From an uncultured bacterium (GTDB taxonomy: Bacteria > Bipolaricaulota > Bipolaricaulia > UBA7950 > UBA9294), in assembly GCA_903857865.1 (NCBI GenBank), contig CAIOGO010000006.1:66511-130510 (forward strand): a stretch of DNA of 64,000 nucleotides, written 5' to 3'. Position 1 is the first letter of the stretch; every line of letters begins with the position of its first letter. Below the pieces are notes generated by a model. It ran no database searches, was not told the DNA's origin, and saw nothing but the letters and a program-made list of their open reading frames with translations. Position numbers and translations under genes: made by a program. Shown here piece after piece: positions 2,784 through 25,520 of the stretch.

Positions 2784-3434
2784 ATGCAGAGAGGAGAGCG
2801 CATGCAGAGACTTGGGAAGGTTCTTTCGCTCGCGATCGTCGCCGTTGCGGTCGCGGCGTTGACGGGCTGTTTCCTCCAGAGTGCGCCGCGCGCGCAGTTC
2901 ACGACCACGCCGGCCTACGACTACCCACCGCTTGACGTCACCTTCGACGCGTCCTCATCGTCGAGCCCGAACGGCCCGATCGTGAACTACAGCTGGGACC
3001 TCGGCGACGGCACCACGGCGGGCGGGGTGATCGTCACGCACACCTACGTCGAGAAAGGCGTCTACGAGGTCACGCTCGAAGTGCGCGACTCCGCCGGGGA
3101 GACGGGAGTGCGCACGAAGAGTGTCGAGGCACTGAATCGACCGCCAGTCGCGCGCTTCGCGGCCAACGTGTACACGACCGGCGTGAACCAGCCGGTGTGG
3201 TTCAACGCCGCCGAGTCGTACGACCCTGACGGCGAGATCGTCGAGTACGTCTGGTCGTTCGGCGACGGCGAGACGGACGAGGGCGTGCTGGTCGAGCATG
3301 AGTACACGACCGCCGGCGGGACCGGATGGCGCCCCCAGATCACGCTCACCGTGGTCGACGACAACGGAGGCACCGACTCGGTTTCGAAGCAGATCCTCGT
3401 CGTCGGCTGTGACAGTTGCGGCGGCGGAGGTTGA
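2784..3434 (+). CDS. PKD-domain lipoprotein with two PKD repeats
   Basis: Lipobox AALTGC. PKD signatures are LDVTFDASSS...YSWDLGDGT and VWFNAAESYDPDGEIVEYVWSFGDGE. The protein ends CDSCGGGG. Confidence 0.8.
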   Translation: MQRGERMQRLGKVLSLAIVAVAVAALTGCFLQSAPRAQFTTTPAYDYPPLDVTFDASSSSSPNGPIVNYSWDLGDGTTAGGVIVTHTYVEKGVYEVTLEVRDSAGETGVRTKSVEALNRPPVARFAANVYTTGVNQPVWFNAAESYDPDGEIVEYVWSFGDGETDEGVLVEHEYTTAGGTGWRPQITLTVVDDNGGTDSVSKQILVVGCDSCGGGG

Positions 3435-3692: not shown

Positions 3693-4712
3693 CTACTCGT
3701 CGACCGGCTGCGCCAACGTGAGGTTCACGATCGCCGTACCCTGGAGCCCCTGGTCGTCGTAGACGTAGAGCCGCACGACGAAGGTGCGCGACGGGGAAGA
3801 CAGCTCGTAGACGTGGACCACTTCGAGGTCGCTCGTCTCGACCAGCGTCCTACCGTCCCCGAAGTCCCACGCATAGTAGTCGAGCGAGTGCCCGGCGTCG
3901 GCCGACGAACCCCGCGGATCGAAGGAGACCTCGTACAGCGTAGGAGTCGACGCTGGACTCGGGGAGTGGTAGAGAACGAGCGGATCCGACATCGTGAACT
4001 CGGCGACCGGATCGTCGCCGCTCGTACTGCCCTCCGGCACGATGACGATGATGCGCACCTGTTCGGTATCGACCGCGCTGTCCGAGTTCCACACAAACAG
4101 CGTGGCCGTGAACTCCTCGGTGGCCTCAGGCGTGTAGGTGTGCCGCACCTCGGCCCCGTTCGACGTCGCGCCGTCGCCGAAGTCCCAGCGATATTGGGCG
4201 ATCGTCCCCGTGCCCGCCGTCGACGTTCGCCCGTCGAACGCCACGGATAGCGGCGTCATCCCAATGAAACGGTCGACCGAGATGCGTGCCACCGGAGACC
4301 CGGTCCCACTACTGCCGCCGCTCGACGGCTGAACCTCGATCGTTTGCGCCGTCTCATCGCTCGCCCCACCGCCGTCGGTGACGCGTAACGTCACGGTGAA
4401 CACCTTCGCCTCGGTGAGCGCGAGGAACGTGTGGTGCGCCAATGCCTCCGACGCCGTTGCTCCCGCATCGCCGAAGTCCCACTCGTACGTCCTGATCTCG
4501 CCCTCCGGGTCGACCGACTCGGACGCGTCGAACGTCACCACGAGCGGCGAGTTGCCGGCGAGCGGCGTCGCCGTGATCACAGCCGTCGGCGCCTGGTTGA
4601 ACAGCATGCAGCCGCAGAAGAAGAGGAGCGATGAGACAAGCGCTCCCAGGTACCCCACCCTCATCCATCGAGCAGCTTGACTCACCGTCTCCTCCTCTGC
4701 CTGCTGAACCAC
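3693..4712 (-). CDS. PKD-domain lipoprotein with three PKD repeats
   Basis: Lipobox LLFFCGC. Repeats are VTFDASESVDPEGEIRTYEWDFGDAG, AFDGRTSTAG..YRWDFGDGA and YYAWDFGDGR. The start is either GTG at 4712, 6 nt after the upstream stop, or ATG at 4664. Confidence 0.75.
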   Translation of the reverse strand: MVQQAEEETVSQAARWMRVGYLGALVSSLLFFCGCMLFNQAPTAVITATPLAGNSPLVVTFDASESVDPEGEIRTYEWDFGDAGATASEALAHHTFLALTEAKVFTVTLRVTDGGGASDETAQTIEVQPSSGGSSGTGSPVARISVDRFIGMTPLSVAFDGRTSTAGTGTIAQYRWDFGDGATSNGAEVRHTYTPEATEEFTATLFVWNSDSAVDTEQVRIIVIVPEGSTSGDDPVAEFTMSDPLVLYHSPSPASTPTLYEVSFDPRGSSADAGHSLDYYAWDFGDGRTLVETSDLEVVHVYELSSPSRTFVVRLYVYDDQGLQGTAIVNLTLAQPVDE

Positions 4713-4718
4713 TCAGGC

Positions 4719-6332
4719 CTACAGATCGCTCGGGCCTTCGACGCCCGCCTTCAGCGTTACCGTGCGCGAGAAAGGTGCCGACTCGTAGCCTAGCCAGTCC
4801 TCGGCCGTCATGGTGATCGTCTTGATCGTGCCGTCGACGGTCACATTCTGGTAGACGTGGATCATGATAGCGTCGCCGCCAAACGGCATCGCCGTCAGGG
4901 TGGCGTAGCTGTACTGATCGAGCGCTGAACCGTCGCCCCAGTTGACGTACAGGTACCGAATCCCCCAACCCTTGTTGTTCGGCCAGTTTGGGAACCACGT
5001 CGGGGGATTCGCCGCCCAGGTCTGACCTTCCGGATCGTACGAGAAGTTGTGGTCATCGTAGCCCGTCGGTGCGCTCGGCGTCGTCGACGAAATCGCAGCG
5101 CCCGTGGCCGTCTGGAGATCGTGCTGGTTCTTCGTCCCGTCAAGACCGAACCAGCGGACGTCGGGGATCTTCCTCGAGCGGATGACCACGGGCACGTTCG
5201 CGCTGAACGCCGGATATGGGGTGGTACTGATCTCTTGCAGGTCGCCGTAGACGACGTCGTCGGCCTGCCAGATCGCTCCTGCGGCGTACGCCGCAGCCTC
5301 GCTGGCATAGACCTCCACTCCCGGTCCTGCCGTGTCCCCGCCCGGGGGGTTCGCGATGTCGAACCCGGCAATCGGCCGATGGTTGTACGCCTTCACCGTC
5401 TTCGTGATCGAGTCGCTCGCACCCTCGTTGTCGAGGACGAGGAGGGTGACGGAGAAGACCTCGCTCGAGGTGTCGGTCGTGTAGACATGAGTCTGGCTCG
5501 TCGCGTTGATGCTCGACGTCGCAGAAGTGTCGCCGAACGACCACGTGTAGAGGATCAACGTGCGGCCGTTGGCCGCTTCGGAGTCCGCCGGGTCGAACGC
5601 CACCTGCAGCGGCGCGACGCCGAGGCTGTCGGTCTGGATGTCGAACCGCGCGCTTGGGGCGCCCGCGGCCGGCGTTCCGCCATCGCCGCTCGTCGAGACC
5701 GACACGGTCTTCGACGCCGTGGCCGTCTTCCCGTCCGACGCACGCACGAGCAAGGTCACCGTGAACGACTGACTCCCCGAACTGAAGAAGGTGTGGGTCA
5801 CGACCTTGCCGAACCCGTTGCCGCCATCGCCGAACGTCCACTCGTAGGCCGCGATCGTCCCGGCCGCGTACGACGAGCCGGACGCGTCAAACGTGACGTT
5901 GACCGGCGATGTGCCCGACGTCGGGCTCGCGGTGAAACTTGCGCTGGGACCCGCCGGCTCGGCCGCGGTGACGTAGACCGTCTTCGCCGCCTGGTCCGCC
6001 GCGTCCCAGTTGTCGGTCACGGTGAGGATGATGGTGTACGTTCCCACCGCGGTGTACGTGTGACCCACCGACCTTCCGGTCCCCACAGCGCCGTCGCCGA
6101 AGTCCCACGAGTAGGTCTTGATCTCGCCATCCGAATCGCTCGACGGCGCGCCGCTCAAGGTCACCGCGAACGGCACCGGCCCCGTCGTGCTCGGACCGAT
6201 GGTGAACCCCGCCACTGGGAGCTTGTTGAACAAGGCGCAGCTTGCCAGAGCCAGCACCAACACGCTCATCCCAACGACGCAACTGAGAAGAATCAGCGTG
6301 CGCGTCGACATCTTCCGTACCCCACGTTTCAC
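4719..6332 (-). CDS. PKD-domain lipoprotein with four to five PKD repeats
   Basis: Lipobox ALASCALFNK. Repeated ...TFDASGS...Y.WDFGDG... modules are present. Confidence 0.8.
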   Translation of the reverse strand: MKRGVRKMSTRTLILLSCVVGMSVLVLALASCALFNKLPVAGFTIGPSTTGPVPFAVTLSGAPSSDSDGEIKTYSWDFGDGAVGTGRSVGHTYTAVGTYTIILTVTDNWDAADQAAKTVYVTAAEPAGPSASFTASPTSGTSPVNVTFDASGSSYAAGTIAAYEWTFGDGGNGFGKVVTHTFFSSGSQSFTVTLLVRASDGKTATASKTVSVSTSGDGGTPAAGAPSARFDIQTDSLGVAPLQVAFDPADSEAANGRTLILYTWSFGDTSATSSINATSQTHVYTTDTSSEVFSVTLLVLDNEGASDSITKTVKAYNHRPIAGFDIANPPGGDTAGPGVEVYASEAAAYAAGAIWQADDVVYGDLQEISTTPYPAFSANVPVVIRSRKIPDVRWFGLDGTKNQHDLQTATGAAISSTTPSAPTGYDDHNFSYDPEGQTWAANPPTWFPNWPNNKGWGIRYLYVNWGDGSALDQYSYATLTAMPFGGDAIMIHVYQNVTVDGTIKTITMTAEDWLGYESAPFSRTVTLKAGVEGPSDL

Positions 6333-6526
6333 CTTCGGCCTCCTTCAGCGCTCGCAACGAGGCATGATGCCAGCACAACACTAGTCCGGGGTTCGTCAAA
6401 CGTCAATCGGGATCCGGTACTTGCGAGGAGGACCCGTGTCCGTGCCGGGCGGGGCATGTGGCCGTCGGCTGTCTCTGCGAGACAGCTGCCGCTCCGGGGA
6501 GCGGCCTTCTCCTGGCCACAAAGACG

Positions 6527-6552
6527 AGGGGACGGCCCGCGCGGGCCGTCCC
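6527..6552 (-). terminator. Terminator hairpin downstream of paralog A
   Basis: GGGGACGGCCCGCGCGGGCCGTCCCC, a perfect GC-rich hairpin. Confidence 0.45.
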
Positions 6553-6574
6553 CCACAACCCAGTTCGCTTCACG

Positions 6575-9500
6575 TCATCGACGGATGAACACAGTTCCCT
6601 TGCCGCTGAACGTGTCCGTCCCATCCGTCGCCGTCATCAGGTAGATGTAGGCACCGTTGGCGAGGGGCTGACAGTCGCTCGCTGTGCCGTCCCAAACGAT
6701 CTGCGTCACGTTTCCCAACTCGTTCGCCCATACCAGATGACCTGCGAGGTCGTAGACCTCGACCGACATCACCGAGGCAATGCCGGTTCCGTTGTATCCA
6801 AACGTTACAGCGCCGGCCGACGGACTCGGCCCCGCGTAGAAGCTCGTGACATCCAGCTTGCTCGCGACGATCAGGATCGTGTCACTCGACGTGTCCGTAG
6901 GATCCGTGGGATCCTTGTACGTCGCCGTGATCGTGGCCCCTGCAGCCAAGTTGAGATCGAGGCCCGTGGTCACGAAGGCATTCTCGGCCCACCCTGCGGG
7001 GTGGGCTAGAGAGAATGCTTGTCCGTCGATCGTGACGGCATTCTCTAGCAGGGATGCGCCGGCGTGGGACGGGTCGACGACCTTCACGTACACGAGATCC
7101 GTGTCCGTGTAGCTTGTCACCGCCGCCCCCGTCACGTCCACGAACGCCGTCGTCGACGCCTGGGACGGAGGAGTGCCGCCACCGCCAATGGCCACCTTAA
7201 TCTGGATTATCGCCGAGTCGCTGTGGTTCGACGGATCCTGGTAGAAGGCCACCACCGTATCGCCCGGCAGCGCGCCAAGCGTCGGCACGCACGTGTACAC
7301 GTTCACGAGATCGACGCAGATGACCGACACGAAGTCTCCCGTGGTGACGCCCGTCTCCAGGAGGTCGAGCGCCGCCCAGAAACCGCTCCGCGGGTTCAAG
7401 ACGTAGATCTTCGCGTTGTCGTTGTCGTCGGTGGCTGGCGTTGTGTCGAAGATGTTCGTATCCCCTAGCAGGGAGTTCACAAAGTGGCCGTAGGTGTCGT
7501 CGGGTTCCGGGCAGTGCCAGTAGTTGTACGCCTCGGGCCCGAACGGCAGATTCTGTCCACCGTCCCAGAACCCGTCAATGCGCTCCCGACGGAGGATGTC
7601 CTCGTTCTGATCCGGGTCCACCACTTCGATGAACACGCAGTCCAAGTTCACGTACCCGTTCACGCGATTGCCCTGCCGGTCGAGGAAGTACATCGTGACC
7701 GACTGGCCGTTATAGACCTGCGTGTCGCCAATCGACATCAGGTCGAACGACACGTCATTCCCCACGCGGACACGATCGATCCGCGGTCCCGAGTAGGCCG
7801 TGCTCGTGTCGGAATCGCCTAGGCCGATCATGCCTTGGAGGCCGTCCACGTAATCCACGTCGTTGTATCGGACGTAGATGTCGTCCTCGTTGAACGCCTC
7901 GAGCTTCCAGTTGTCGAGCACAAGCTGGTATCCACCCATCAAGCCGGCAACTCCCACGCCGAGAGCATCCCAGACCGGCAGGAGCTCCATTCCCGCGTTC
8001 GAGAAGAAGACCGGCGAGTTCGAGCTCGTCTCGTCGAGCGGCCAGAACTCCCCGTCGTCCTCATCGTGCGGATCGCAGATATGAACCACGACCTGCTCCG
8101 GGCAGCACGAGTCGACGTTCGCGTTCGCGTCGATCACCTGCACGTACACCGGGTCGCGACCGATCCAGAAGAGCTTCTTGTCCTGGCGCGTCGCATCCGT
8201 GAACGACACGATCGAGTGCATCTTTTCCTCGATGTACGCCGCGTCCAGCTTGAAGTCGTCTTCGTCGTTCGGGTCAAGGTAGTAGGCCACGAGCACGTCG
8301 CGAACGTCCAGGCTGTCGAACCCAAGATCGACGAGGAGCGAGTTCAGGTTCAGCTGGAACACGCCCGTATTCGGACCCGTCTCCTGCGCGTAGAACGAGA
8401 CGGCCGTCACCCCGTTCGCGCTTGCCGTGTCAAACAGGGTCCCGTGATAGACAGGATTGAAGACTCCAGCCTTCGGGTATTGGATGTAGTAGCGCCCATC
8501 CTTCGCTCCCAGCGTGCCGTAGTCGTTCTTCTCGGAATTGTAGATGTTGAACCAGCGAATCGGACGGTTGGTATAGTCGGTGGTCGGTGGAAGCGCCGGA
8601 TCCTGCGCCACCGTGTAGTTCCCAGCGATGCCGCCCGTGCGCTTCAGCATACAGAAGTTGTTGGGGCTGTCGCCCGTCGTCAAGGCTGGGTCGTCAGCGG
8701 AGTTCGTCGGGTTCCATGACCCTGGGTTCACCAGGATGAATACCGGGACAACCTCCACCTCGTTGCAGTTCAAGTTTTCGTCTGCATCGGTGACGATGAT
8801 CGTCGCCGCTTCGTTCCCATCCTTGTAGATCTCTCGGTCCCACGCGATCGTCGCCTCGGTGTCGATGACCTTCATCATCGCCGTCGCGACGTCTGTGTCG
8901 TCGTTCGGGTCCTGATACATCCCAATGAGCGTGTCCATGTTCTCGAACCGGCCGACCAGCCAAGAAGCGGGAGAAGCCGTGTCGCGATTCCCATTCAGGC
9001 TGGAGGGAAGGACATACGCCGATAGCGGCAGGTCGATGTACCCGGACCCAAACGCTGCGGAGTTCCCTGTGACCGCGCCGACCCAGTGGAGCCAATCGCC
9101 GTCCGCGTTGCTCCCACCCTTCGTCTCGTTGTGCAGATCGGCGTAGAAGTAGTTGCCCCACTTGAACTCATCCGGCGGCGACGACGGCGTGTCGACGACG
9201 TGCGTTCCCTTCCACGGCTCGCCGGAGGCGAAGCTCTCGCGGGTCCCAATCTGAAACGCGTGGCTGCTGACGAAGAGCCCCGTGTCGGCGCCCGTCTCTT
9301 CGAGATAGTCTTCGGCAAGCGACCCGGGATTGCCAGGGAAGTGCCCCTTGTACGGGACGTAGTCTTCGTCGTCGTACGGATCGGACCAGCCCTTTCCAGT
9401 TAGGTCAGCGTAGCTCTTCCAGACGATGTAGGCGCCCGTCTTCGGGTCCATGATCTTGACGTCGGTCCAGATCTTGTCGCGCACGTCGCAGTCGATGTTC

Positions 9501-9673
9501 TCGTCCGTGTCGTGAATGACAATCCAAACCGAGTTCCCTTCCTGGACGTTCGTCACTCGGTTCTGCCCGTTCTTGTCGGACGCGAAGTACATCTCCGCGT
9601 TCGAGGCAGCCAGACCGAGCGACGCAATGACCAGGAAGAGGACGCCTACCCACACTGCCCTACGCATCCTCAT
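6575..9673 (-). CDS. Large secreted protein, paralog A, with a T9SS-type (FlgD-Ig-like) C-terminal sorting domain
   Basis: Start ATG at 9673 (MRMRRAVWVGVLFLVIASLGLAASNA signal peptide, GGGAGG Shine-Dalgarno). The C-terminus reads ...SVEVYDLAGHLVWANE...WDGT...NGAYIYLMTATDG...GKGTVFIRR, which matches the Por-secretion C-terminal domain pattern. About 60 % identical to the 10974..14057 protein. Confidence 0.8.
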   Translation of the reverse strand: MRMRRAVWVGVLFLVIASLGLAASNAEMYFASDKNGQNRVTNVQEGNSVWIVIHDTDENIDCDVRDKIWTDVKIMDPKTGAYIVWKSYADLTGKGWSDPYDDEDYVPYKGHFPGNPGSLAEDYLEETGADTGLFVSSHAFQIGTRESFASGEPWKGTHVVDTPSSPPDEFKWGNYFYADLHNETKGGSNADGDWLHWVGAVTGNSAAFGSGYIDLPLSAYVLPSSLNGNRDTASPASWLVGRFENMDTLIGMYQDPNDDTDVATAMMKVIDTEATIAWDREIYKDGNEAATIIVTDADENLNCNEVEVVPVFILVNPGSWNPTNSADDPALTTGDSPNNFCMLKRTGGIAGNYTVAQDPALPPTTDYTNRPIRWFNIYNSEKNDYGTLGAKDGRYYIQYPKAGVFNPVYHGTLFDTASANGVTAVSFYAQETGPNTGVFQLNLNSLLVDLGFDSLDVRDVLVAYYLDPNDEDDFKLDAAYIEEKMHSIVSFTDATRQDKKLFWIGRDPVYVQVIDANANVDSCCPEQVVVHICDPHDEDDGEFWPLDETSSNSPVFFSNAGMELLPVWDALGVGVAGLMGGYQLVLDNWKLEAFNEDDIYVRYNDVDYVDGLQGMIGLGDSDTSTAYSGPRIDRVRVGNDVSFDLMSIGDTQVYNGQSVTMYFLDRQGNRVNGYVNLDCVFIEVVDPDQNEDILRRERIDGFWDGGQNLPFGPEAYNYWHCPEPDDTYGHFVNSLLGDTNIFDTTPATDDNDNAKIYVLNPRSGFWAALDLLETGVTTGDFVSVICVDLVNVYTCVPTLGALPGDTVVAFYQDPSNHSDSAIIQIKVAIGGGGTPPSQASTTAFVDVTGAAVTSYTDTDLVYVKVVDPSHAGASLLENAVTIDGQAFSLAHPAGWAENAFVTTGLDLNLAAGATITATYKDPTDPTDTSSDTILIVASKLDVTSFYAGPSPSAGAVTFGYNGTGIASVMSVEVYDLAGHLVWANELGNVTQIVWDGTASDCQPLANGAYIYLMTATDGTDTFSGKGTVFIRR

Positions 9674-9872
9674 CGCAACCTCCCGCGTTTCAGAGCAAGC
9701 CATCACCGGGGCCGAGCCCCGTCCGTACCCTGCTCGACCGTCACCACCATGTCGATTCAATCATCGTCAGGATAGGCGGCGGCGAGGCCGCCGTCCAGTC
9801 AACGCGCACGGCGCCGCGCCCCGCGCGCGGCGCGCGGCGCCCCGCACGTCCGTGTCCACGAGTGCGTACAAA

Positions 9873-9898
9873 GGAAGCGGGGTGGAGTTTCCTCCACC
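9873..9898 (-). terminator. Terminator hairpin downstream of the PorV-like gene
   Basis: On the minus strand, GCGGGGTGGAG-GAAA-CTCCACCCCGC followed by TTCCTTTGTAC. Confidence 0.5.
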
Positions 9899-9928
9899 CC
9901 GCCACAAGCGAAACTGGAACCGTGTCCC

Positions 9929-10897
9929 TTACTTACCCGTCGTGGGCGTCGTCGCCGGCTTCACCGTCTCGGTGCCGACCGGCTCCTCGCCGAGCAGTCC
10001 GCCCAGCGAGAACTCCGCCGACAGCACGAGCGTGTTCCCCAGCGTCTGGTTCAGGACATACGCCGCGTCCACGTACAGGCCCGCCACGTTGATCCCTGCT
10101 CCAACGGTGAAGTAGTAGTCCTGGAAGTTGTTCGTCAGAACCACGCCGCCGCGCAGCGCCAACTCGTTGATCACCTTGAACTCCACGCCAACGTGCGTGT
10201 CCCCAAGGCTCGATCCGTCAAAGTCGACGTCCGTCGCCAGCACCAGCTTGTTGTCCGCCAGCTTCATCGCAATGCCGGCCTTGTACATTCCGGTGATGGT
10301 GTCCTTCGCGCCGCCGGACCAATCGAGCGCGCTGCCCGCAAGGTCCTTCGCGTTCACGCCGATCACGAACATGTCGCCAAGGCTCACCAGCAAGCCGAGG
10401 TCAAAGCCAAACCCACTGGCCGTGTCCCCCAGTCCGCTGTCCGCCATGTAGTACTTCACGTTCGCGCCCGCCATCGCGACGTCCATCACGTTCGTCGCCA
10501 GCGATCCAACGATCGCCTGCTCCGTCCACGTGAACGTCTCGCCGATCGTGCCTTCCCCGTCCACTGCCTGGCCGTCGATGGCAGCTCGCTCCCATCCAAG
10601 GCCGACTCCGAGGTTGGCAAACGTCGTCACGGCACCGACGTACTGGTGCGTAACGCCCAGTCCGTACAGGTCCGTCGACATCCCCGCCAGCCGCGTGTCG
10701 TTCAACAGTGCAAGACCCGCGGGATTCCAGCACGCCGCCGTCGCGTCATCCGCGACCGCCACAAACGCTCCACCCATCGCCAGAGCACGCGCGCCAACTC
10801 CATTCTTGAACGCGCTGAACGCTCCGATGCCGTCCGCCATCGCGACCGCGGACAGGACCAGGATGAGCGCTAGACTCACAATCATCGCTCTCTTCAT
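9929..10897 (-). CDS. PorV/FadL-like outer-membrane beta-barrel protein
   Basis: Start ATG at 10897 (MKRAMIVSLALILVLSAVAMA signal peptide). The N-terminal motif GARALAMGGAFVAVADDATAACWNPAGLALL is the hallmark of the PorV/FadL/TodX family. It sits between two T9SS-cargo-like paralogs. Confidence 0.6.
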   Translation of the reverse strand: MKRAMIVSLALILVLSAVAMADGIGAFSAFKNGVGARALAMGGAFVAVADDATAACWNPAGLALLNDTRLAGMSTDLYGLGVTHQYVGAVTTFANLGVGLGWERAAIDGQAVDGEGTIGETFTWTEQAIVGSLATNVMDVAMAGANVKYYMADSGLGDTASGFGFDLGLLVSLGDMFVIGVNAKDLAGSALDWSGGAKDTITGMYKAGIAMKLADNKLVLATDVDFDGSSLGDTHVGVEFKVINELALRGGVVLTNNFQDYYFTVGAGINVAGLYVDAAYVLNQTLGNTLVLSAEFSLGGLLGEEPVGTETVKPATTPTTGK

Positions 10898-10973
10898 CGC
10901 TGCCTGTACCCCCTTTGTAGGGTTGCAGAGTCGGGTTGCCGGACTCGTCGCCCGGCAACCCGTTTTCGCTTCC

Positions 10974-13900
10974 TTACCGGTTGATGAACAACGTTCCCTT
11001 ACCATTGAACGTGTCCGTCCCGTCCGTCGCCGTCACTAGGTAGATGTACGCGCCGTTCGCCACAAACGCGCCGCCGTCGTCCTTACCGTTCCAGACGATC
11101 TTCGTCACGTTCGCCAGCTCGCTCGCCCACACCACGTGCCCTGCGAGGTCGTATACCGTCACCGACATCACCGAAGCAATGCCGCTTCCCTTGTATGCAA
11201 ACGTCACATCGCCAGCCGACGGGTTCGGCCCTGCGTAGAAGCTCGTAACATCAAGCTTGCTCGCGATGATCGTGATCGTGTCGGTCGACGTATCGGTCGG
11301 ATCCGTCGGATCCTTGTACGTCGCCGTGATCGACGTTCCCGCCGTCAGGTTGAGATCCAGTCCGGTCGTGATGAACGTGTCCGTTGGCGCACCGGCGAGC
11401 GGCGCAAGAGCGTACGTTACCGTACCGATCGTCACCGCACCCGCCAGCGTCGTCGCCCCGGCGTGAGACGGGTCGACGACCTTCACGTACACCAGGTCCG
11501 CGTCCGTGTAGTTCACCACAGCGGCGCCCGTTGCATTCGTGAATGTCGTCGTCGACGACTGCGACGCAGGCGTAGTGCCGCCACCAATGCCCACCTTAAC
11601 CTGGATCATGGCCGAATCCGAGTGGTTCGACGGATCCTGGTAGTAGGCCACAACCGTATCGCCCGGCAGCGCGCCGAGCGTCGGCACGCACGTGTACACG
11701 TTCACCAGGTCGACGCAGATGACCGACACGAAGTCTCCCGTGGTCACGCCCGTCTCAAGAAGATCGAGCGCCGCCCACTGGCCACTCCGCGGGTTCAACA
11801 CGTACACCTTGGGATACGAGTACTGATAACTGTTGTACTGAGCGTCTCTGGCGCTAGCGTCAGAGAGTCTGCTGAAGATGTTCGTGTCGCCGAACAGCGC
11901 GTTCAGCGGGTTGATGTACGTCCGAGTCCAGTCGCAGACGAACCCGTTCAAGGCCCGGGGTCCGAACGGCATGTTCTGGTTCTTGTCCCAGAACCCGTCG
12001 ATGCGCTCGCGGCGCAGCGTGTCCTCGTTCTGATCCGCGTCCACCACTTCGATGAACACGCAGTCCGAGTTCACGTAGCCAGACACGCGGTTGCCCTGCC
12101 GGTCGAGGAAGTACATGGTGACCGACTGGCCGTTGTACACCTGCGTGTCCGCGATCTCCATCAGGTCGAACGACACATCGTTCGCCACGCGGATCCGATC
12201 GATCTTCGGCGGGAACGCGGTGCTGGCCGTGCTCGCAAACGTTTCGTCGCCGAGACCGCCCATGCCTTCAAGGCCGGTCACATAGTACACGTCGTTGTAC
12301 TGCACGTAGACGTGGTCCTCGTTGAACACCTCGAGCTTCCAGTTGTCAAGATTCAGCTGGTAGCCGCCCGTCTTGGACGGCTCATTCCCGATGCCCATTG
12401 CGTCCCACACCGGCAGAAGTTCCGTCCCGGCGTTGGAGAAGAAGACGGGCGAGTTCGAACTCGTCTCGTCGAGGATCAACCACTCGGCGTCGTCCCACTC
12501 GTGCGGATCGCAGATCGAGACAACAACCTGCTCCGGGCAGCACGGGTCAACGTTCGCGTTCGCGTCGATGACCTGCACGTACACCGGGTCGCGGCCGATC
12601 CAGAAGAGCTCCTTGTCCTGGCGCGTCGCGTCGGTGAACGACGTGATCGAGTGCTGCTTCTCCTCGATGTACGACACGCCGACTTGGAAGTCGTCCTCGT
12701 CGTTCGGGTCAATGTAGTAGGCCACGAGCACGTCGCGCACGCTCAGACTGTAGAACCCAAGATCCACGAGGATCGAGTTCAGGTTGAGCTGGAACACGCC
12801 CGTGTTCACGCCCGTCTCCTGCGCGTAGAACATCACTTCCGTGACGCCGTTCGTAGCGACGGTGTCGAAGAACGTGACGTTGCTCTGCGACTGGACCGGG
12901 TACTGCATGTAGTAGTTCCCAGCCATCGCAGGCCTTGTCGGGAACGTCAGGCCGCTGTTGTAGATGTTGTACCAGGCAATCGGCGCCGGCTTTGGCGCCG
13001 CAGTTGTCACAACTCGCTCGGTACCGTCGAGCTCAACGCCGCCGGTGCGCTTGAGGGCGCAGAACCCGGTCGGGCTGTCCCAATCACTCGCGGTCTGCAC
13101 GGGGTTCCACGACTCGGGGTTCACGATGATGAACACCGGCACGTACTCGATCTCGTTGCAGTTCAAGTTCTCGTCCGCATCGGTCACCGTGATGGTGGCC
13201 GACCCGTTCGCGTCCTTGTAGATTTGCTGGTCCCACGTGACCGACCCCTTCGTGTCGATGATCTTCATCATCGCCGTCGCGACGTCGGTCGGATCGTTCT
13301 GGTCAACGACCATGCCGATCAGCGTGTCCATGTTCTCGAACCGGCCGTGCTCCTTCGTGACCCATGACGGAAGGGTGGTCAGAGCAGTAGGAAGAGCCAC
13401 GGTCTGTTTGCCACGGATTCCGTTCACGTACTCCCACTGTCCGAAGTTGGTGTTGTTTCGAGTGCTGTCGAACGGGCCATGGAAACCGTTCTTCGCCGAG
13501 AGGACTCCCGCGAAGTCGAGGCCGACCCAGTGAGTGTTCAACTCATCCACTCGGTAGTCGAGCCGCGTGCCGATCTGCATCGGCTGGCTGCTCACGAACA
13601 GACCCGTGTCGGCGCCCGTCTCCTCAAAGTAGACGATGTCCGCGGGTACGTCCTTCCCGGGATTGTGCCCAGGCTGGTAGTGGCCGTACGCGGCCACATC
13701 ATTGCCAGCTCTCGCCAGAGCAAACGCAAAGTTGATGTACGCGCCGGTCTTGGGATCGAACACCTTCGCGTCCGTCCAGAACTTGTCGCGCACGTCGCAG
13801 TCAATGTTCTCGTCCGGATCGTGTACGACCATCCAGACCTGGCTTCCTTCTTGCACATTCGTAACCCTTGTCTGGCCGTTCTTGTCGCTCGAGAAATACA

Positions 13901-14057
13901 GCTCCGAGTTCGTCGCGGCGGCAGAAAGGGCGAAGAACGCCATAACCAGAATCGTTACGACGCTCAGTACTCCCAGTCTCTTCTTCAACGTCCTACCTCC
14001 TTCGTAGTTCGAAGATCTCGCTTGTGTTCTTTCGCTTCGTTCATCTTGTTCGGTCAT
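10974..14057 (-). CDS. Large secreted protein, paralog B, with a T9SS-type C-terminal sorting domain
   Basis: Start ATG at 14057 (MTEQDE...LKKRLGVLSVVTILVMAFFALSAAATN signal peptide). The C-terminus reads ...SVTVYDLAGHVVWASE...WNGKDDGG..NGAYIYLVTATDG...GKGTLFINR. Long blocks are near-identical to paralog A, for example FYAQETG.NTGVFQLNLNS.LVDLGF... Confidence 0.8.
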   Translation of the reverse strand: MTEQDERSERTQARSSNYEGGRTLKKRLGVLSVVTILVMAFFALSAAATNSELYFSSDKNGQTRVTNVQEGSQVWMVVHDPDENIDCDVRDKFWTDAKVFDPKTGAYINFAFALARAGNDVAAYGHYQPGHNPGKDVPADIVYFEETGADTGLFVSSQPMQIGTRLDYRVDELNTHWVGLDFAGVLSAKNGFHGPFDSTRNNTNFGQWEYVNGIRGKQTVALPTALTTLPSWVTKEHGRFENMDTLIGMVVDQNDPTDVATAMMKIIDTKGSVTWDQQIYKDANGSATITVTDADENLNCNEIEYVPVFIIVNPESWNPVQTASDWDSPTGFCALKRTGGVELDGTERVVTTAAPKPAPIAWYNIYNSGLTFPTRPAMAGNYYMQYPVQSQSNVTFFDTVATNGVTEVMFYAQETGVNTGVFQLNLNSILVDLGFYSLSVRDVLVAYYIDPNDEDDFQVGVSYIEEKQHSITSFTDATRQDKELFWIGRDPVYVQVIDANANVDPCCPEQVVVSICDPHEWDDAEWLILDETSSNSPVFFSNAGTELLPVWDAMGIGNEPSKTGGYQLNLDNWKLEVFNEDHVYVQYNDVYYVTGLEGMGGLGDETFASTASTAFPPKIDRIRVANDVSFDLMEIADTQVYNGQSVTMYFLDRQGNRVSGYVNSDCVFIEVVDADQNEDTLRRERIDGFWDKNQNMPFGPRALNGFVCDWTRTYINPLNALFGDTNIFSRLSDASARDAQYNSYQYSYPKVYVLNPRSGQWAALDLLETGVTTGDFVSVICVDLVNVYTCVPTLGALPGDTVVAYYQDPSNHSDSAMIQVKVGIGGGTTPASQSSTTTFTNATGAAVVNYTDADLVYVKVVDPSHAGATTLAGAVTIGTVTYALAPLAGAPTDTFITTGLDLNLTAGTSITATYKDPTDPTDTSTDTITIIASKLDVTSFYAGPNPSAGDVTFAYKGSGIASVMSVTVYDLAGHVVWASELANVTKIVWNGKDDGGAFVANGAYIYLVTATDGTDTFNGKGTLFINR

Positions 14058-14619
14058 CGGAGGCACCCCCTGCACTCTTCCTTCACGCCTCCACCCCGCT
14101 TGTAGGGACACACGGTTCCACACGTTCCGCCCCACCACCTCCAGAGGGAAGCTCTATGGTCGGCTTCCGCTCGGCCTCGCCGAGTCCAAGGAACAAACGC
14201 TGCCCAGTGTAGCAGCAACGCCAAGTCGCATTCTCAATGACCAGCGGAAGTGGTTGCCCACCCCCCCATTTCGTGAGTCGCTCGATCTTACAGCACGCCC
14301 GCAACGTCTGTCAAGCGCGATCAGGACTGAGCCATCTCCCCATCGTACAGCACCCGGCATGGCGGGCGTCAACGTCTTCCGTGCCGCGTGGGATGAGCAC
14401 AATCCAGGACTCACCATGCGTGAACCACCTCCCGGTCGGTGTTTCTTTCCAGATCGCCCCAGGCTACAGCGTCTCGGGCCCCTCAACCTGTACGGTGGGC
14501 GCTCGCGACCTGCCTCCGGTCCGCCTCGGTGGGGACACGCGTCCGTGATCCGAACTACGCGGTCCGCGGCCGGCAGGGCGACGCCCTCGCCTTGACACGA
14601 TCGGCAAGGAGTCGATATC

Positions 14620-15345
14620 GTGGCTTCGTTGCCCCGAGGGGGAGGAGGAACCATGACAGCGAAGGGAACGAGACGGGTACTGGCCAGCCTCTTGGTTGCG
14701 GCCGTCCTTGTGGGGCTCTCGATGGCGGGGAACGCGGTGACGGTGGCGGTGAAGACGAACGGGGGGCACGTGCTGCAAGGGACCCTGTCCGGACTCGCCC
14801 CAACGCTGCGGCTGCAGGATCCTACCCCTCCCGTGGGGCCCGCGGCGCAGTTCGACATCCCTCTCGCGTCCATCGAGCAGATGTGGATCAACTTTCCGCG
14901 CGTCGTCATCGAGACGGCCGACCATGTGATCGTCGGTCCCTACTCGGCGTTCGCGGGCATCGCGCAACTGCTTAGGATCGAAGACGCGGGGAGCGTCACC
15001 GAGGTGCCGTTCGCCGCGGTGCAGGCGATCGCGTTCAACGGCGCCGCGTTCCACGCCTTGCCGCGCGAGTGGCTCGGCCGAGACTGGCTGAACCAGCGAG
15101 GCTACGTGGTGAACACGACGGCCGGAGCGGTCGGCGCCGCGGCGGCGACCGAAGCGGAAACCGAGCCCCTGATTGTGTCGGCTCCGCTTGCGGAGGGGGG
15201 CGACGAGGTCATCTGGAACGGTACGCCGCCGGCCGCGCCGGCGCCGACAGCATCGAGCGGGGAACTGCCGTGGTGGGTGCTGCTCATCGGTGTCGCGGTC
15301 GTGGTCGCCCTGTTCCTCTTCCTCCCAGCGGGCAAGGGGGCGTGA
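14620..15345 (+). CDS. Secreted protein with a C-terminal membrane anchor
   Basis: N-terminal signal peptide (RRVLASLLVAAVLVGLSMAGNA) and C-terminal transmembrane segment (LPWWVLLIGVAVVVALFLFLPAGKGA). A GGGGGAGGAGGAAC Shine-Dalgarno is present. Confidence 0.6.
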   Translation: MASLPRGGGGTMTAKGTRRVLASLLVAAVLVGLSMAGNAVTVAVKTNGGHVLQGTLSGLAPTLRLQDPTPPVGPAAQFDIPLASIEQMWINFPRVVIETADHVIVGPYSAFAGIAQLLRIEDAGSVTEVPFAAVQAIAFNGAAFHALPREWLGRDWLNQRGYVVNTTAGAVGAAAATEAETEPLIVSAPLAEGGDEVIWNGTPPAAPAPTASSGELPWWVLLIGVAVVVALFLFLPAGKGA

Positions 15346-15352
15346 GGGCCTC

Positions 15353-16642
15353 TTGAGGCATAGCCTTGAGGGGCACAACCTCAAGGGGTGGGGCCGCGGA
15401 GCTTCCGTCCTCGTTGCCCTTGTCGCCGCCCTCACGTCGACGGCGGGAGTCGATTCGCACGCGTCGCAGGTCCGCACCGAGTCGAAGCACTTCGTCATCA
15501 CCTACAAGGCAGGCACGTCGTTCGACTACGTGCAGCTCGTGCAGCGCGGCCTCGAGGCGGCCTACGACCTCTTCGTCGTCCGTTCGGCCTTCGCGACCTT
15601 CCCCACGACCGTCGAGGTGATCATCCTGGCCGAAGGCACAGGCAGCATGGGCGCGGAGTACCTTGAGACGGACGACGCCGGGAATTCTTCCCCCGTGATC
15701 GAGATCGCGCCCGAAGCGTTCATGCAAGCTGCCGCCGACGCCACCTCGACGGGCCTTTCGCTCACCGAGGCCGTGCTGTCGACGACAGCGCACGAGTTCT
15801 TCCACGTCCTCCAGGACTACGCGTCGCTCAACGGGGCGGGCGATGTCTCGGAGGCTGCGTTCATCGAGCCGCTCGCCACGGCCGTGCAGGAGATCGCCGC
15901 CCCGAACGCCAACGACTACATCGACGCGGCCGCCGACCTCCTGCTCGCCCCGGACGCGATGTCCTTCCTCAATCGCGGCTACGACGGAGGACTCTTCTGG
16001 GTCTTCGTGCTCGACCGCTACGGAGGTCTCAACGCCATTCGCCGCGTCATGAAGGCGAGCGCAACCTACGACGGCAGCCAGGCGATCGACCACGCGTTTG
16101 CCGCCGAGGGCTTCACGTTTCTCGATCTCTGGGCCAAGTTCGCCATCGCGCTCGCGACGAACACCCTGCCGGACGCAGGCGTAATCGCCAAGCTCCTCGC
16201 GTCCTGGCGCTCGGAGCTCGATCTTCCCGGCCTCTACCTGCCCCCGGCGCTGGCGGTCGCGGACTGGACTGGAGCCCCAGCGATCATGGATCGCGTCACC
16301 GAGACCTCGCCGGCCGACGCGCTCCTCGGCACCTCGGACAGCGCCCTAGGAGCTGGGCTCCTAGGAGCCCAGCTCCGCGTCGCCCACCCGTACGGCATCG
16401 ACATCGTGTCCATCCGCCCGAGGTCAGCCGCGCCTCTTGCCATCGCCGTCACCGCGTCCGCGGCCACCGACTTCCGCATCGCCGTCACGGGACGAAGAGG
16501 CGGCGCGTGGGAGCTCCTCTCCCTGTCGGGCCGCGAGATCGACGTGCCCAGCCCCCAGCGCTATGAGGAGATCCGCGTCATCCTCACCCGCGGCGAGACC
16601 GGCGACGGCTCGTACACCGTCCGGCTGTCAACGGGGCCGTAG
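15353..16642 (+). CDS. Secreted protein with an HExxH motif (putative zinc metallopeptidase), TTG start
   Basis: There is no in-frame ATG after the upstream gene's stop at 15345. TTG at 15353 gives LRHSLEGHNLKGWGRGASVLVALVAALTSTAG, a signal-like segment. HEFFH is followed by VLQDYAS. Confidence 0.55.
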   Translation: MRHSLEGHNLKGWGRGASVLVALVAALTSTAGVDSHASQVRTESKHFVITYKAGTSFDYVQLVQRGLEAAYDLFVVRSAFATFPTTVEVIILAEGTGSMGAEYLETDDAGNSSPVIEIAPEAFMQAAADATSTGLSLTEAVLSTTAHEFFHVLQDYASLNGAGDVSEAAFIEPLATAVQEIAAPNANDYIDAAADLLLAPDAMSFLNRGYDGGLFWVFVLDRYGGLNAIRRVMKASATYDGSQAIDHAFAAEGFTFLDLWAKFAIALATNTLPDAGVIAKLLASWRSELDLPGLYLPPALAVADWTGAPAIMDRVTETSPADALLGTSDSALGAGLLGAQLRVAHPYGIDIVSIRPRSAAPLAIAVTASAATDFRIAVTGRRGGAWELLSLSGREIDVPSPQRYEEIRVILTRGETGDGSYTVRLSTGP

Positions 16643-21457: not shown

Positions 21458-22429
21458 CTAGAAGGGCGTCTCCGCGCCCACGTAGCACTGAAGCCCGGCA
21501 TCGGAGAAGAGCCGCCGATGGCCCGCCATCTGGTCGCCGGTCGGAGGCTGGGCCTGCGCATGCGCGTACTCCAACCCAAGCTGCGCGTACTTTGACTCAG
21601 CCATTCGGTGGAAGGGTAGAAGGTTCACCTCGATGAGCTGGAGCTCGGCCAGGAATCGAGCTGTGGCACGAAGGTTCTCCGGTGAATCGTTGAACCCCGG
21701 AACGATCGGGATCCGAACGACCACGCGTGTCTCACGCGACGACTGCGCCAAGTTCACAAGGTTGGCAAGGATCTGCTCGTTCCCGACGCCGGTGCCGCAG
21801 TGATGAGCCGCACCGTCCATGTGCTTCAAGTCGACGAACAGCCAGTCTGTGCGACGCGCGACGTCCAATACGAGCTGCTGGTCGGCGTGTGCAGAGGTCT
21901 CGACGACCGTGTGGATGTACGCCTCACGACAGGCGTCGAGTGCCGCCAGCAGGAACTCCGGTTGACTCGTCGGCTCGCCCCCGCTGAAGGTGACGCCGCC
22001 CTCCGGCCCCCAGTAGTCGCGATCCCGTCCCAGGGTTCGCATCAACTCGCGCACGGACATCCGGCGCCCCGACACCTCCAGCGCGCTGTTCAAACAAGCA
22101 GAGACGCAGCTTTGCGCATCGCACGTCGCGCAGAGCGTTCGATCGAAGATGGGGGGAAGCGGTGCGGCGGGGTCGACTCGGATCGCACCATACGGACAGG
22201 CAGCGACGCACGGAGTGCCGTCGGACCGGCAGCGGGACGCTCGGACCATCAGCCGTGGTCTCGGGAGGAGCCCCTCCGGATTGGCACACCATGAGCAACG
22301 CAACGGGCACCCGCTCATGAAGACTGTGGTCCGGCACCCCGGACCGTCGTGCACCGAGTGTGCCTGGATGTCGAAGATCAATCCCTCCACGGGCGCGCTC
22401 AGCCGTTCCTCCATTCGAACCACTCGCAC
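21458..22429 (-). CDS. Glycyl-radical-enzyme activating enzyme (radical SAM, with an extra ferredoxin-like Cys cluster domain)
   Basis: Radical-SAM motif CPLRCSWC. GHDGPGCRTTVF N-terminus. Additional clusters CRSDGTPCVAACPYG and CATCDAQSCVSAC. This architecture is typical of activases for non-PFL glycyl-radical enzymes. Confidence 0.85.
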   Translation of the reverse strand: MRVVRMEERLSAPVEGLIFDIQAHSVHDGPGCRTTVFMSGCPLRCSWCANPEGLLPRPRLMVRASRCRSDGTPCVAACPYGAIRVDPAAPLPPIFDRTLCATCDAQSCVSACLNSALEVSGRRMSVRELMRTLGRDRDYWGPEGGVTFSGGEPTSQPEFLLAALDACREAYIHTVVETSAHADQQLVLDVARRTDWLFVDLKHMDGAAHHCGTGVGNEQILANLVNLAQSSRETRVVVRIPIVPGFNDSPENLRATARFLAELQLIEVNLLPFHRMAESKYAQLGLEYAHAQAQPPTGDQMAGHRRLFSDAGLQCYVGAETPF

Positions 22430-22668
22430 GTCACGGCAACGAGGTCCGGGTACGTCATCGGCCGGTCCGGCGTGGCCGAGCAGGCGCCCGTGTACTCTTC
22501 TTCACTCGGCGAGTACAGCCTGCACTCGGCGCACCGCGGCAGGCGGTCGAACGAGGGGCAGGCGTCGTCGTCTGCGCGGACGGTCCCTTTCGTCACGTGG
22601 CAGATTCCCTTGACCACATCGATGGGGGCGTAGTTCCGGCAGTACATGTGCCTAGACGAGGCGCTCAC
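22399..22668 (-). CDS. Cys-rich small protein, candidate HpdC-like Fe-S small subunit of the glycyl-radical enzyme
   Basis: 89 aa. GTG start at 22668 overlaps the large-subunit stop as GTGA. A GGGGGTG Shine-Dalgarno is present. Potential ligands are spaced H7-x2-C10-x12-C23-x13-C37-x8-C46-x2-C49-x13-C63-x17-C81. It sits between the large subunit and the activase, the same arrangement as hpdB-hpdC-hpdA. Confidence 0.5.
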
Positions 22669-25381: not shown

Positions 25382-25520
25382 GGTTCCTCCTCAGTTCTAC
25401 GGCGCCGTGATGCACGGCATTGCGGTTGCTGTCCGCGTAGCTGCGATCGAAGCCGCGCAGGCGCTTTCGGTTGCAGCATGGCCTAGCGAGAGTCTACCGA
25501 CCAGGTGCGCAGATGGCCAA

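Follow-up and report, generated by a model that had tools for sequence, protein, structure and literature searches.

The nearest described counterparts of the locus analyzed here are the surface-attachment complexes belonging to type IX secretion systems (T9SS), in which the C-terminal domains (CTDs) of PorZ and PorU stay uncleaved and the PorQ barrel anchors PorZ (PMC10947112). Our locus consists of three successive minus-strand genes in a 64-kb stretch of DNA from an uncultured bacterium of the phylum Bipolaricaulota (contig CAIOGO010000006.1, positions 66,511 to 130,510; hereafter, the window), whose overall G+C content is about 65%. In order of transcription, the three genes, all with a G+C content at third codon positions (GC3) of the coding type, encode a large secreted protein (B), an outer-membrane barrel, and a second large secreted protein (A). 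The conserved core of this locus is a gene pair, in which a large protein ending in a T9SS-type CTD is followed directly by a barrel of the PorV/PorQ superfamily. Similarly, in the PorZ-PorQ and PorU-PorV pairs of Porphyromonas gingivalis, a surface protein with a CTD sits on a barrel of the PorV/PorQ family; the proteins encoded here are of matching kinds, and a comparable docking may be supposed for them. Several features set the locus apart from those pairs: Bipolaricaulota lie outside the superphylum of Fibrobacteres, Chlorobi, and Bacteroidetes (FCB), no translocon or motor genes were found in the window or the inspected flanks, the cargo gene adjoins the barrel gene in strict synteny, and the passenger is a 940-residue array of immunoglobulin (Ig)-like domains rather than a sortase or a lipopolysaccharide (LPS)-binding protein.

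A second parallel is offered by SprB and SprF of Flavobacterium johnsoniae, where the gene for a large surface protein is linked to that of a dedicated barrel acting as its shuttle or anchor (PMC9143113, PMC12618676). As in such type B CTD/PorP-SprF pairs, the gene for a large surface protein is tied here to a barrel gene of its own, but the CTD is type A-like, and the barrel matches PorV/PorQ rather than PorP/SprF models; moreover, the type B systems need a complete T9SS. In their overall construction, A and B recall the surface-layer (S-layer) proteins of Nitrosopumilus maritimus (PDB codes 8c8m, 8c8l, and 8c8k) and Haloferax volcanii (7ptp), with which they share long chains of Ig-like domains and an acidic character. 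However, no sequence similarity to these proteins is detectable, the structural TM-scores are low, and these archaeal proteins anchor in the cytoplasmic membrane, whereas the anchor proposed here is a CTD seated on an outer-membrane barrel. Finally, Omp-alpha and Omp-beta of Thermotoga are likewise envelope proteins of toga-bearing lineages. These, however, tether the outer membrane to peptidoglycan via SLH domains and involve neither a CTD nor a PorV-type barrel, and none of the searches made detected homology between them and A, B, or our barrel.

The envelope in which the locus would operate is itself atypical. The closed genome of Candidatus Bipolaricaulis anaerobius Ran1, a member of the Bipolaricaulota, has no LPS genes and points to an atypical, Thermotoga-like envelope (PMC6092417), and Omp-alpha/Omp-beta-type tethers are carried by the phylum (bioRxiv 10.1101/2021.05.31.446380). 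J31, the first cultured strain (64.5% G+C), has an outer-membrane toga under a hexagonal S-layer, the protein of which was not named (bioRxiv 10.1101/2025.11.21.689855). Our literature search returned no paper linking T9SS with Bipolaricaulota or Acetothermia and none naming an S-layer protein. Against this background, we propose that the locus is a cargo-plus-anchor cassette, in which a coat protein would be held via a retained CTD on its cognate PorV/PorQ-type barrel, a reading to which we give an even chance of being right.

A gene pair conserved across the Bipolaricaulota

The components of the cassette in the window are as follows.

6575-9673, minus strand: paralog A, 1032 aa, a secreted all-beta protein with five diverged beta-sandwich repeats (open reading frame [ORF] 6575-9760)
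6578-6853, minus strand: CTD of A, covering residues 941-1032; a beta-sandwich of seven strands (FlgD_ig match and AlphaFold2 [AF2] model)
9929-10897, minus strand: barrel gene, 322 aa, PorV/PorQ (FadL-type) superfamily, with a signal peptide ending in ...AVAMA/DG
10974-13988, minus strand: paralog B, 1004 aa, a secreted all-beta protein and the first gene of the cassette (ORF 10974-14138)
10977-11252, minus strand: CTD of B, T9SS type A-like (TIGR04183; E-value of 4e-44 with an offline CTD hidden Markov model [HMM])

The gaps between the genes are 76 nt (B to barrel) and 255 nt (barrel to A). The original prediction had described tandem paralogs of about 60% identity with a common architecture. 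Indeed, BLASTP puts the full-length identity of A and B at 63%, with 69% over aligned columns, and both combine an N-terminal signal peptide (in B, MKKRLGVLSVVTILVMAFFALSAAA) with a C-terminal beta-sandwich domain. The start of B, on the other hand, had been placed at ATG 14057, which would give the protein 23 extra leader residues without a counterpart in A. Most likely, translation instead begins at TTG 13988 (MKKRLG...), given the GGAGG lying 7 nt 5' of this codon and an independent gene call that also yields a product of 1004 aa.

Scanning species-representative genomes yielded about 28 loci from the Bipolaricaulota, and flanks of 10 kb on either side were read for related loci. The barrel ortholog is directly preceded by a large CTD protein in 27 of the 28 loci that have upstream DNA, with a gap between the two genes of roughly 20 to 110 bp; apart from this pair, the neighbors differ among loci. 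A second large copy after the barrel is found only in the clade of the window itself. There, one further contig (P0008) has the order B-like, barrel, A-like, PKD, PKD, with an A-like protein 74% identical to A, and the alignment distinguishes an A-like from a B-like lineage, the latter being common to B, P0043, P0046, and P0077. Because the second copy is limited to one clade but recurs in the same order with separable lineages, the A/B duplication is older than the strain and yet not ancestral to the phylum. Thus, the layout of two paralogs flanking a barrel that had been noticed originally is real, but it is a lineage-specific elaboration: the conserved unit is the pair of cargo and following barrel rather than the trio, and copy A is a clade-specific duplication.

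The same arrangement recurs with unrelated cargo. One Bipolaricaulota contig (JAUWGE010000001.1) codes for a subtilisin-like protease whose CTD is PorU-like (locus L036, 7323-11005) and, directly after it, for a second barrel of the PorV/PorQ family, which is 33% identical to the first barrel and scores 85 bits with the family model NF033709. Right after the first barrel, the same contig carries a gene whose 1112-aa product combines a beta-helix with a type A CTD (locus L022, 11186-14524; TIGR04183, 25.8 bits against a cutoff of 23). When offline HMMs of the CTD and barrel alignments were run over all fetched loci, additional cassettes of a CTD protein and a following barrel came to light within the Bipolaricaulota (L007, L013, L025, and L035). 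Further, a CTD-encoding ORF of 790 to 3300 aa followed by a barrel within about 100 bp was seen in about 28 loci of other phyla and metagenome-assembled genomes (MAGs), namely, Ignavibacteria, Zixibacteria, Calditrichota, Gemmatimonadota, Eisenbacteria, Bacteroidota, and unclassified MAGs (including loci L040, L044, L046, L048, L052, L053, L058, L060, L062, L063, L067, L073-L077, L079, and L084). In the loci named here, the ORFs are 1000 to 3300 aa long, and their passengers have no homology to A or B. This suggests that the order of CTD protein and then barrel is a general rule.

As an aside, 12 of the loci (L008, L010, L011, L017-L019, L021, L023, L024, L027, L030, and L035) come from records titled "uncultured Thermotogae bacterium." Their barrels are 63 to 84% identical to that of the window and are accompanied by an ortholog of the large protein; they are probably Bipolaricaulota MAGs under another taxonomic label.

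The C-terminal domain resembles those of PorZ and PorU

Both CTDs match the FlgD_ig, Por_Secre_tail, and CHU_C families, at scores on either side of the curated cutoffs. For FlgD_ig, A and B score 29.7 and 24.8 bits, respectively, with a cutoff of 27. For the type A sorting model TIGR04183 (cutoff of 23), B reaches 23.2 bits, while A reaches 18.1 bits as a whole protein and 22.8 bits as an isolated CTD; PF18962 gives 13.5 bits on A against a cutoff of 27. The CTD of B also matches the C-terminal regions of PorU and PorZ. The picture becomes clearer at the level of the family: of 30 family CTDs, TIGR04183 matches 29 at an E-value of 0.01 or lower (best, 1.1e-7), the PorU C-terminus is matched by 28, and that of PorZ is matched by 21, whereas the type B model TIGR04131 matches only 4, weakly.

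Profile searches against PDB agree with this. The first two matches of the CTD profile are the CTDs of PorZ (5m11; E-value, 8e-6) and PorU (6za2; E-value, 6.9e-5), after which come streptococcal C5a peptidases, through their Ig-like domains, and then FlgD; the CTD of a cargo protein (8glj_D) is matched at an E-value of 0.044. The model of A shows seven strands in residues 941 to 1030, at block values of the predicted local distance difference test (pLDDT) mostly of 79 to 94, and in this it resembles solved T9SS CTDs. Taking these findings together, the original assignment of the C-terminal domains to the T9SS type is borne out, and, judging from the profile comparisons, the CTDs of A and B resemble type A domains and come nearest to those of PorZ and PorU, which remain uncleaved.

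The barrel belongs to the PorV/PorQ superfamily

The barrel between the paralogs had been called PorV/FadL-like, and the present searches uphold this. It scores 88.2 bits with the NCBIfam PorV/PorQ family NF033709 (cutoff of 90; E-value, 7.6e-25), with residues 31 to 297 of 322 aligned to profile positions 8 to 325 of 326, and this model is matched by all 42 members of the barrel alignment A3 at an E-value of 0.001 or lower. The profile of that alignment in turn matches F. johnsoniae PorV (PDB 6H3I_F) in two stretches covering most of both proteins (E-value, 1.1e-21; 80.6 bits), and FadL-like 3DWO at an E-value of 0.002. The much better match to 6H3I_F establishes the homology of the barrel to PorV. 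At the same time, the equivalog cutoffs for PorV (NF033710, 33 against 250 bits), PorQ (NF033711, 34.1 against 220 bits), and PorV2 (NF052325, 60.4 against 325 bits) are not reached; hence, we regard the barrel as a member of the superfamily and not as an ortholog of any named T9SS component.

More than 800 homologs of the barrel were found, and the best 120 are all 80 to 91% identical to it. In like-for-like pairs of genomes (loci L004-L010), the barrels are about 81 to 83% identical and the large proteins about 59 to 63%, which marks the barrel as much the more constrained partner. Conservation of this strength is unusual for an outer-membrane protein; a part in the structure or in a lattice, or a large number of interaction partners, would be compatible with it. 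The hexagonal spacing reported for the J31 S-layer, 6.25 nm, also comes closer to a barrel in size than to a subunit of 110 kDa.

With a type A-like CTD and a PorV-like barrel in hand, one alternative, which is also how the original prediction understood A and B, is that they are ordinary T9SS cargo. In this case, a complete T9SS (SprA/Sov, PorKLMN, and PorU) would be encoded elsewhere in the genome, the barrel would act as the PorV shuttle, and the CTD would be cleaved. The type A-like character of the CTD in 29 of 30 family members and the homology of the barrel to PorV are as expected for cargo; further, some members of the A/B family carry the NCBI name "T9SS type A sorting domain-containing protein," and there are several different CTD proteins per genome, as a general secretion signal would give. 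Set against these points, the T9SS is, in published accounts, confined to the FCB superphylum or to Bacteroidota (PMC8754138, PMC11205867), and our search found no paper that ties it to the Bipolaricaulota. Of the T9SS core genes, namely, SprA/Sov, PorK/L/M/N, PorT, PorU, and PorW, Pfam detected none in the 64-kb window and none appeared in the inspected flanks of 10 kb on either side of related loci, and the barrel misses all three equivalog cutoffs. Moreover, several barrels occur per genome, each beside a CTD protein of its own, so that they look like dedicated partners and not like one general shuttle. LPS is the anchor for classical type A cargo. The reported absence of LPS genes therefore speaks against a classical attachment by sortase to anionic LPS (A-LPS) and for a protein-protein anchor. 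Thus, while the domain calls for the CTD and the barrel stand, status as T9SS cargo is not established for a non-FCB phylum with neither a core gene in the window or flanks nor reported LPS genes, and we consider it unlikely.

Another alternative is that the barrel is a FadL-type uptake channel for hydrophobic substrates, such as fatty acids or alkanes, and that the large protein is an independent adhesin or substrate-capturing protein sharing only a nutritional role with it. This would accommodate the weak Pfam matches of the barrel to Toluene_X/FadL and UPF0164, the match to 3DWO, and the high identity among the best 120 homologs, which would suit a conserved transport function, as well as the PKD lipoproteins adjoining the cassette; J31 is reported to take up hexadecane through its toga (bioRxiv 10.1101/2025.11.21.689855). 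However, the similarity to PorV is far stronger than that to FadL (E-values of 1e-21 versus 2e-3), and, in many phyla, barrels of this kind adjoin CTD-ending proteins regardless of whether the N-terminal region is an Ig-like array, a subtilisin, or a beta-helix. In addition, neither Pfam nor NCBIfam revealed a catalytic or carbohydrate-binding domain in A or B. An uptake role of this type therefore strikes us as quite improbable, more so than the cargo explanation.

The passenger: a chain of diverged Ig-like repeats

More than 500 homologs of A of about 1000 aa were found among 8000 scored candidates. The 120 listed are 57 to 100% identical to A. Where a source name is given, it is Candidatus Bipolaricaulota, Bipolaricaulia, or Acetothermia, apart from a single entry labeled "archaeon." An AF2 model of A built from 119 homologs (pLDDT, 89.4; predicted TM-score [pTM], 0.78) is nearly all beta, with only four short helices of 4 to 7 residues outside the signal peptide. 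Ahead of the CTD, it resolves into five repeats, given here in residues of A.

24-270: repeat D1
271-482: repeat D2
483-630: repeat D3
631-835: repeat D4
836-940: repeat D5

The relationship among these units is recovered by hhalign on slices of the family alignment, which links D4 to D5 (E-value, 3e-8), D1 to D4 (4.6e-7), D3 to D5 (7e-6), and D1 to D2 (1e-5). Three motifs recur in every unit, [VI]x[VI]xDxDxNxD, ExETGxxTGxF, and YxDPxDxxD. Large insertions sit in D1, D2, and D4. Both between A and B and in the family at large, variation does not extend beyond the inserted segments (residues 81-120, 161-240, 321-400, and 721-760); the repeat cores are 75 to 95% identical. Both proteins are acidic (isoelectric point of 4.1 to 4.3), and Asp, Asn, or Glu is invariant at dozens of positions. 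The acidic character and the invariant carboxylates in the repeated DxDxNxD, ETGxxTG, and YxDPxD motifs are consistent with a metal-dependent assembly. Ten cysteines are conserved (C62, C303, C341, C523, C524, C533, C679, C721, C786, and C795), in what is an extracellular protein of an anaerobe. Among them, C523 and C524, together with P525 and E526, are invariant in 119 of 119 sequences; Q527 is present in 106 of the 119 (window positions 8095-8106, minus strand) and is K, T, or D in some members.

The original prediction held that the central domains match nothing that could be named. At the level of sequence this still applies: in the central 900 or so residues, Pfam and NCBIfam gave nothing credible (matches to RRP40_S1 and Neuralized fall below the cutoff), and a search of PDB with profile A1 matched CTDs only, with no link to S-layer proteins. 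Structurally, however, a likeness to the Ig-like arrays of archaeal S-layer proteins emerged. The first Foldseek matches of the A model in PDB are N. maritimus S-layer proteins (8c8m at an E-value of 1.6e-22, 8c8l at 3.3e-19, and 8c8k), with the Haloferax S-layer protein 7ptp appearing later (1e-8). An exhaustive HMMER search with residues 24 to 940 of A against 1.84 billion cluster representatives returned only 174 relatives at an E-value of 0.001 or lower, many of them fragments. The A/B passengers form a narrow family without a name.

Two kinds of unusual relatives deserve mention. A few giant proteins of 3400 to 3700 aa contain 13 to 20 tandem copies of a unit corresponding to about residues 426 to 563 of A; for P0290, P0291, P0307, and P0325 (3364 to 3692 aa), the number of copies is 14 to 20, and P0290 also carries K319L-like PKD domains. 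The second kind is a 1376-aa protein (cluster P0258, including NCBI MCL7388293.1) labeled as coming from Thaumarchaeota/Candidatus Terraquivivens, which is made up of an N-terminal right-handed beta-helix, a region with 43% identity to D2-D5, and a T9SS-like CTD. Since its signal peptide is of the bacterial type and its CTD of the same kind, an error of binning or labeling is at least as likely as a transfer between domains of life.

The C-C-P-E-Q stretch at residues 523 to 527 could be read as the CxEQ motif of alpha2-macroglobulin-like thioester proteins, which would make A and B protease traps or covalent adhesins, and Foldseek indeed lists many alpha2-macroglobulin, complement, and CD109 chains (E-values of 1e-10 to 1e-8) while four of the five residues are invariant; but we rejected this as very improbable, since the replacements of Q527 by K, T, or D would abolish the thioester, the model has no alpha/alpha-toroid domain, no Pfam model of the A2M family matches A or B, and the equivalent positions of D1 and D2 have a cysteine after the acidic motif without a following EQ. 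The D1 and D2 cysteines instead argue for a structural or metal-related role at the level of the repeat.

A proposed cargo-plus-anchor model

Returning to the cassette as a cargo with its anchor, we suggest the following course of events. A and B would be exported via Sec as acidic, all-beta proteins composed of five diverged Ig-like repeats with hypervariable insertions and a type A-like CTD. The CTD, being retained, would dock noncovalently on the cognate PorV/PorQ-type barrel, probably of FadL fold, encoded by the next gene. This step is modeled on the attachment complex of the T9SS, where PorQ holds PorZ and PorV holds PorU. Docking would fasten the Ig-like array to the outside of a toga-like outer membrane, where it would be exposed and could assemble into a lattice, forming, or at least contributing to, the proteinaceous coat of the cell. 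We regard the A/B family as a candidate for the S-layer that covers the toga of strain J31. The two copies represent an old tandem duplication whose products differ mainly in their exposed insertions, and they may be coat variants that either assemble together or alternate.

Several observations weigh against this proposal. We infer the contact between CTD and barrel; the AF2 model of the barrel, with a pLDDT of only 44 (121 sequences, all at least 80% identical), was discarded. Further, one locus (L020) has the barrel without a large protein upstream. The TM-scores of the S-layer matches are low (0.10 to 0.17), and unrelated chains with macroglobulin (MG) domains, from alpha2-macroglobulin and complement, score similarly with Foldseek; together, these suggest that the similarity to S-layer proteins mainly reflects a chain of Ig-like domains. 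The codon usage of A, B, and the barrel (effective number of codons and GC3) is like that of their neighbors. Ten conserved cysteines are unusual in S-layer proteins. The lattice spacing reported for J31 (bioRxiv 10.1101/2025.11.21.689855) is small for a 110-kDa subunit. Finally, if there is no translocon, the crossing of the outer membrane is left unexplained, and surface exposure has to be assumed.

A bolder version of the model would dispense with the translocon and motor of the T9SS altogether. Under it, the CTD and the PorV/PorQ-type barrel would constitute an autonomous anchoring module, possibly even a two-partner module for self-export, that builds the S-layer of the toga. We put this forward tentatively, as it appears to us less probable than the cargo-plus-anchor cassette as such.

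Neighboring genes and intergenic elements

The genes and elements around the cassette are listed below in the order of the window.

245-2743, plus strand: LonC-like protease (Pfam scan of the window)
2784-3434, plus strand: third PKD lipoprotein (PKD domain and lipobox cysteine)
3693-4712, minus strand: PKD-domain lipoprotein downstream of A (Pfam PKD_4, lipobox)
4719-6332, minus strand: PKD-domain lipoprotein downstream of A (Pfam PKD_4, lipobox)
6527-6554, minus strand: terminator-like hairpin after A, with a stem of 12 bp, 10 of them G-C (terminator scan)
9876-9903, minus strand: intrinsic-terminator-like hairpin after the barrel gene, with a 12-bp stem, a GAAA loop, and a T-rich tail (terminator scan)
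10933-10961, minus strand: stem-loop of 10 bp (GGGTTGCCGG...CCGGCAACCC) without a T-tract (read from the sequence)
14285-14314, minus strand: promoter-like TTGACA-18-TAAGAT (consensus match only)

Three PKD lipoproteins had been described upstream of the paralogs. All three do possess lipobox cysteines (LASC, FCGC, and LTGC), but in the direction of transcription the PKD genes lie downstream of A. The two that directly follow A have no CTD according to the offline CTD HMM; they recur in like order on the P0008 contig and yet are not found beside the cassette in loci L004-L006. The two PKD lipoprotein genes are thus clade-specific accessories outside the conserved pair. The other neighbors named originally, a LonC-like protease, a signal-peptide protein with a C-terminal transmembrane segment, and an HExxH protein, are all present. 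The latter two are the products of two genes without Pfam matches that diverge from B (14653-16642, plus strand). The first product, of 230 aa, has a signal peptide and a C-terminal transmembrane helix, and the second, of 429 aa, is secreted and bears an HEFFH metalloprotease-like motif; neither gene adjoins the cassette in L004-L006.

Farther away in the window, a gene for a pyruvate formate-lyase (PFL)-like glycyl-radical enzyme (22665-25390, minus strand) is apparently split over two overlapping ORFs in different frames, with ORF 24353-25390 covering profile positions 4 to 229 and ORF 22665-24809 covering positions 235 to 647 and the Gly_radical domain. This could be due to a frameshift or to faulty sequencing, or the gene could be a pseudogene; next to it, at 21458-22429, lies the gene for a radical-SAM activase. 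The window also encodes a bactofilin-domain protein (47885-48877, minus strand); bactofilins have been proposed as shapers of polar prosthecae or toga extensions in Bipolaricaulota (PMC6092417).

Turning to the intergenic DNA, the stem-loop in the gap between B and the barrel gene was not called by the terminator scan, and we can only speculate that it sets the ratio of B to barrel transcripts. The promoter-like site, if real, would give B a 5' untranslated region of about 290 nt, though the scan that found it returned three sites where 1.5 were predicted from shuffled sequences. A search of positions 6000 to 15500 against Rfam gave no family at an E-value of 1 or lower. Upstream of A, just before a TTGACT hexamer, lies an extremely G+C-rich palindromic stretch (9790-9850, minus strand; GTGCGGGGCGCCGCGCGCCGCGCGCGGGGCGCGGCGCCGTGCGCG), which is largely conserved in locus L087.

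A motif shared by the regions upstream of both paralogs had been taken as a possible mark of a duplication junction or a common regulatory element. Both of its segments are indeed present, GCGGGGTGGAGG at 9891-9902 and 14088-14099 (both minus strand) and a 13- to 15-nt segment in opposite orientations at 9916-9928 (minus strand) and 14105-14119 (plus strand), but the meaning ascribed to them does not hold. Upstream of A, the copy of GCGGGGTGGAGG forms one arm of the barrel gene's terminator hairpin, the stem of which measures 12 bp. This hairpin is identical in L087, where the protein identity is 94%, and, together with a stretch of about 60 nt, it is kept with compensatory changes in the stem in locus L007 (10968-11012), which has no A copy downstream. 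When aligned locally, the two upstream regions reach at best a score of 24 to 26, as against 20.1 ± 2.4 (maximum, 29) for shuffled sequences. The comparison between strains likewise revealed no inversion, the orientation of the motif in L087 being equal to that in the window. Given that it is a terminator arm, that the regions align like shuffles, and that L087 is not inverted, we reject both a duplication junction and an invertible element as explanations of the motif.

Biological implications

The components of the cassette are of known kinds, and some family members already carry a T9SS type A label from the NCBI pipeline. What is new is the strict gene pair of a CTD protein and a PorV-type barrel in a phylum that is far from the FCB group and reported to be without LPS, along with a five-repeat, Ig-like passenger that has no name and a gene order that is general across phyla. 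An order of cargo and then barrel is known for type B CTD/PorP pairs; in the literature searched, we did not find it described for barrels of the PorV/PorQ type.

The Bipolaricaulota are a globally distributed, deep-branching phylum that has been cultured only lately, and the pair supplies a concrete candidate for both their surface layer and its anchor. The finding thereby bears on how atypical, toga-like outer membranes get their protein coats. The occurrence of such a pair far outside the FCB superphylum also raises the question of whether the docking of a CTD on a barrel is self-sufficient and separable from translocon and sortase. If the tentative autonomous module proves true, the attachment half of type IX secretion would be older, or more mobile, than the secretion machine and would be usable in the LPS-free outer membrane of a lineage near the Thermotogota.

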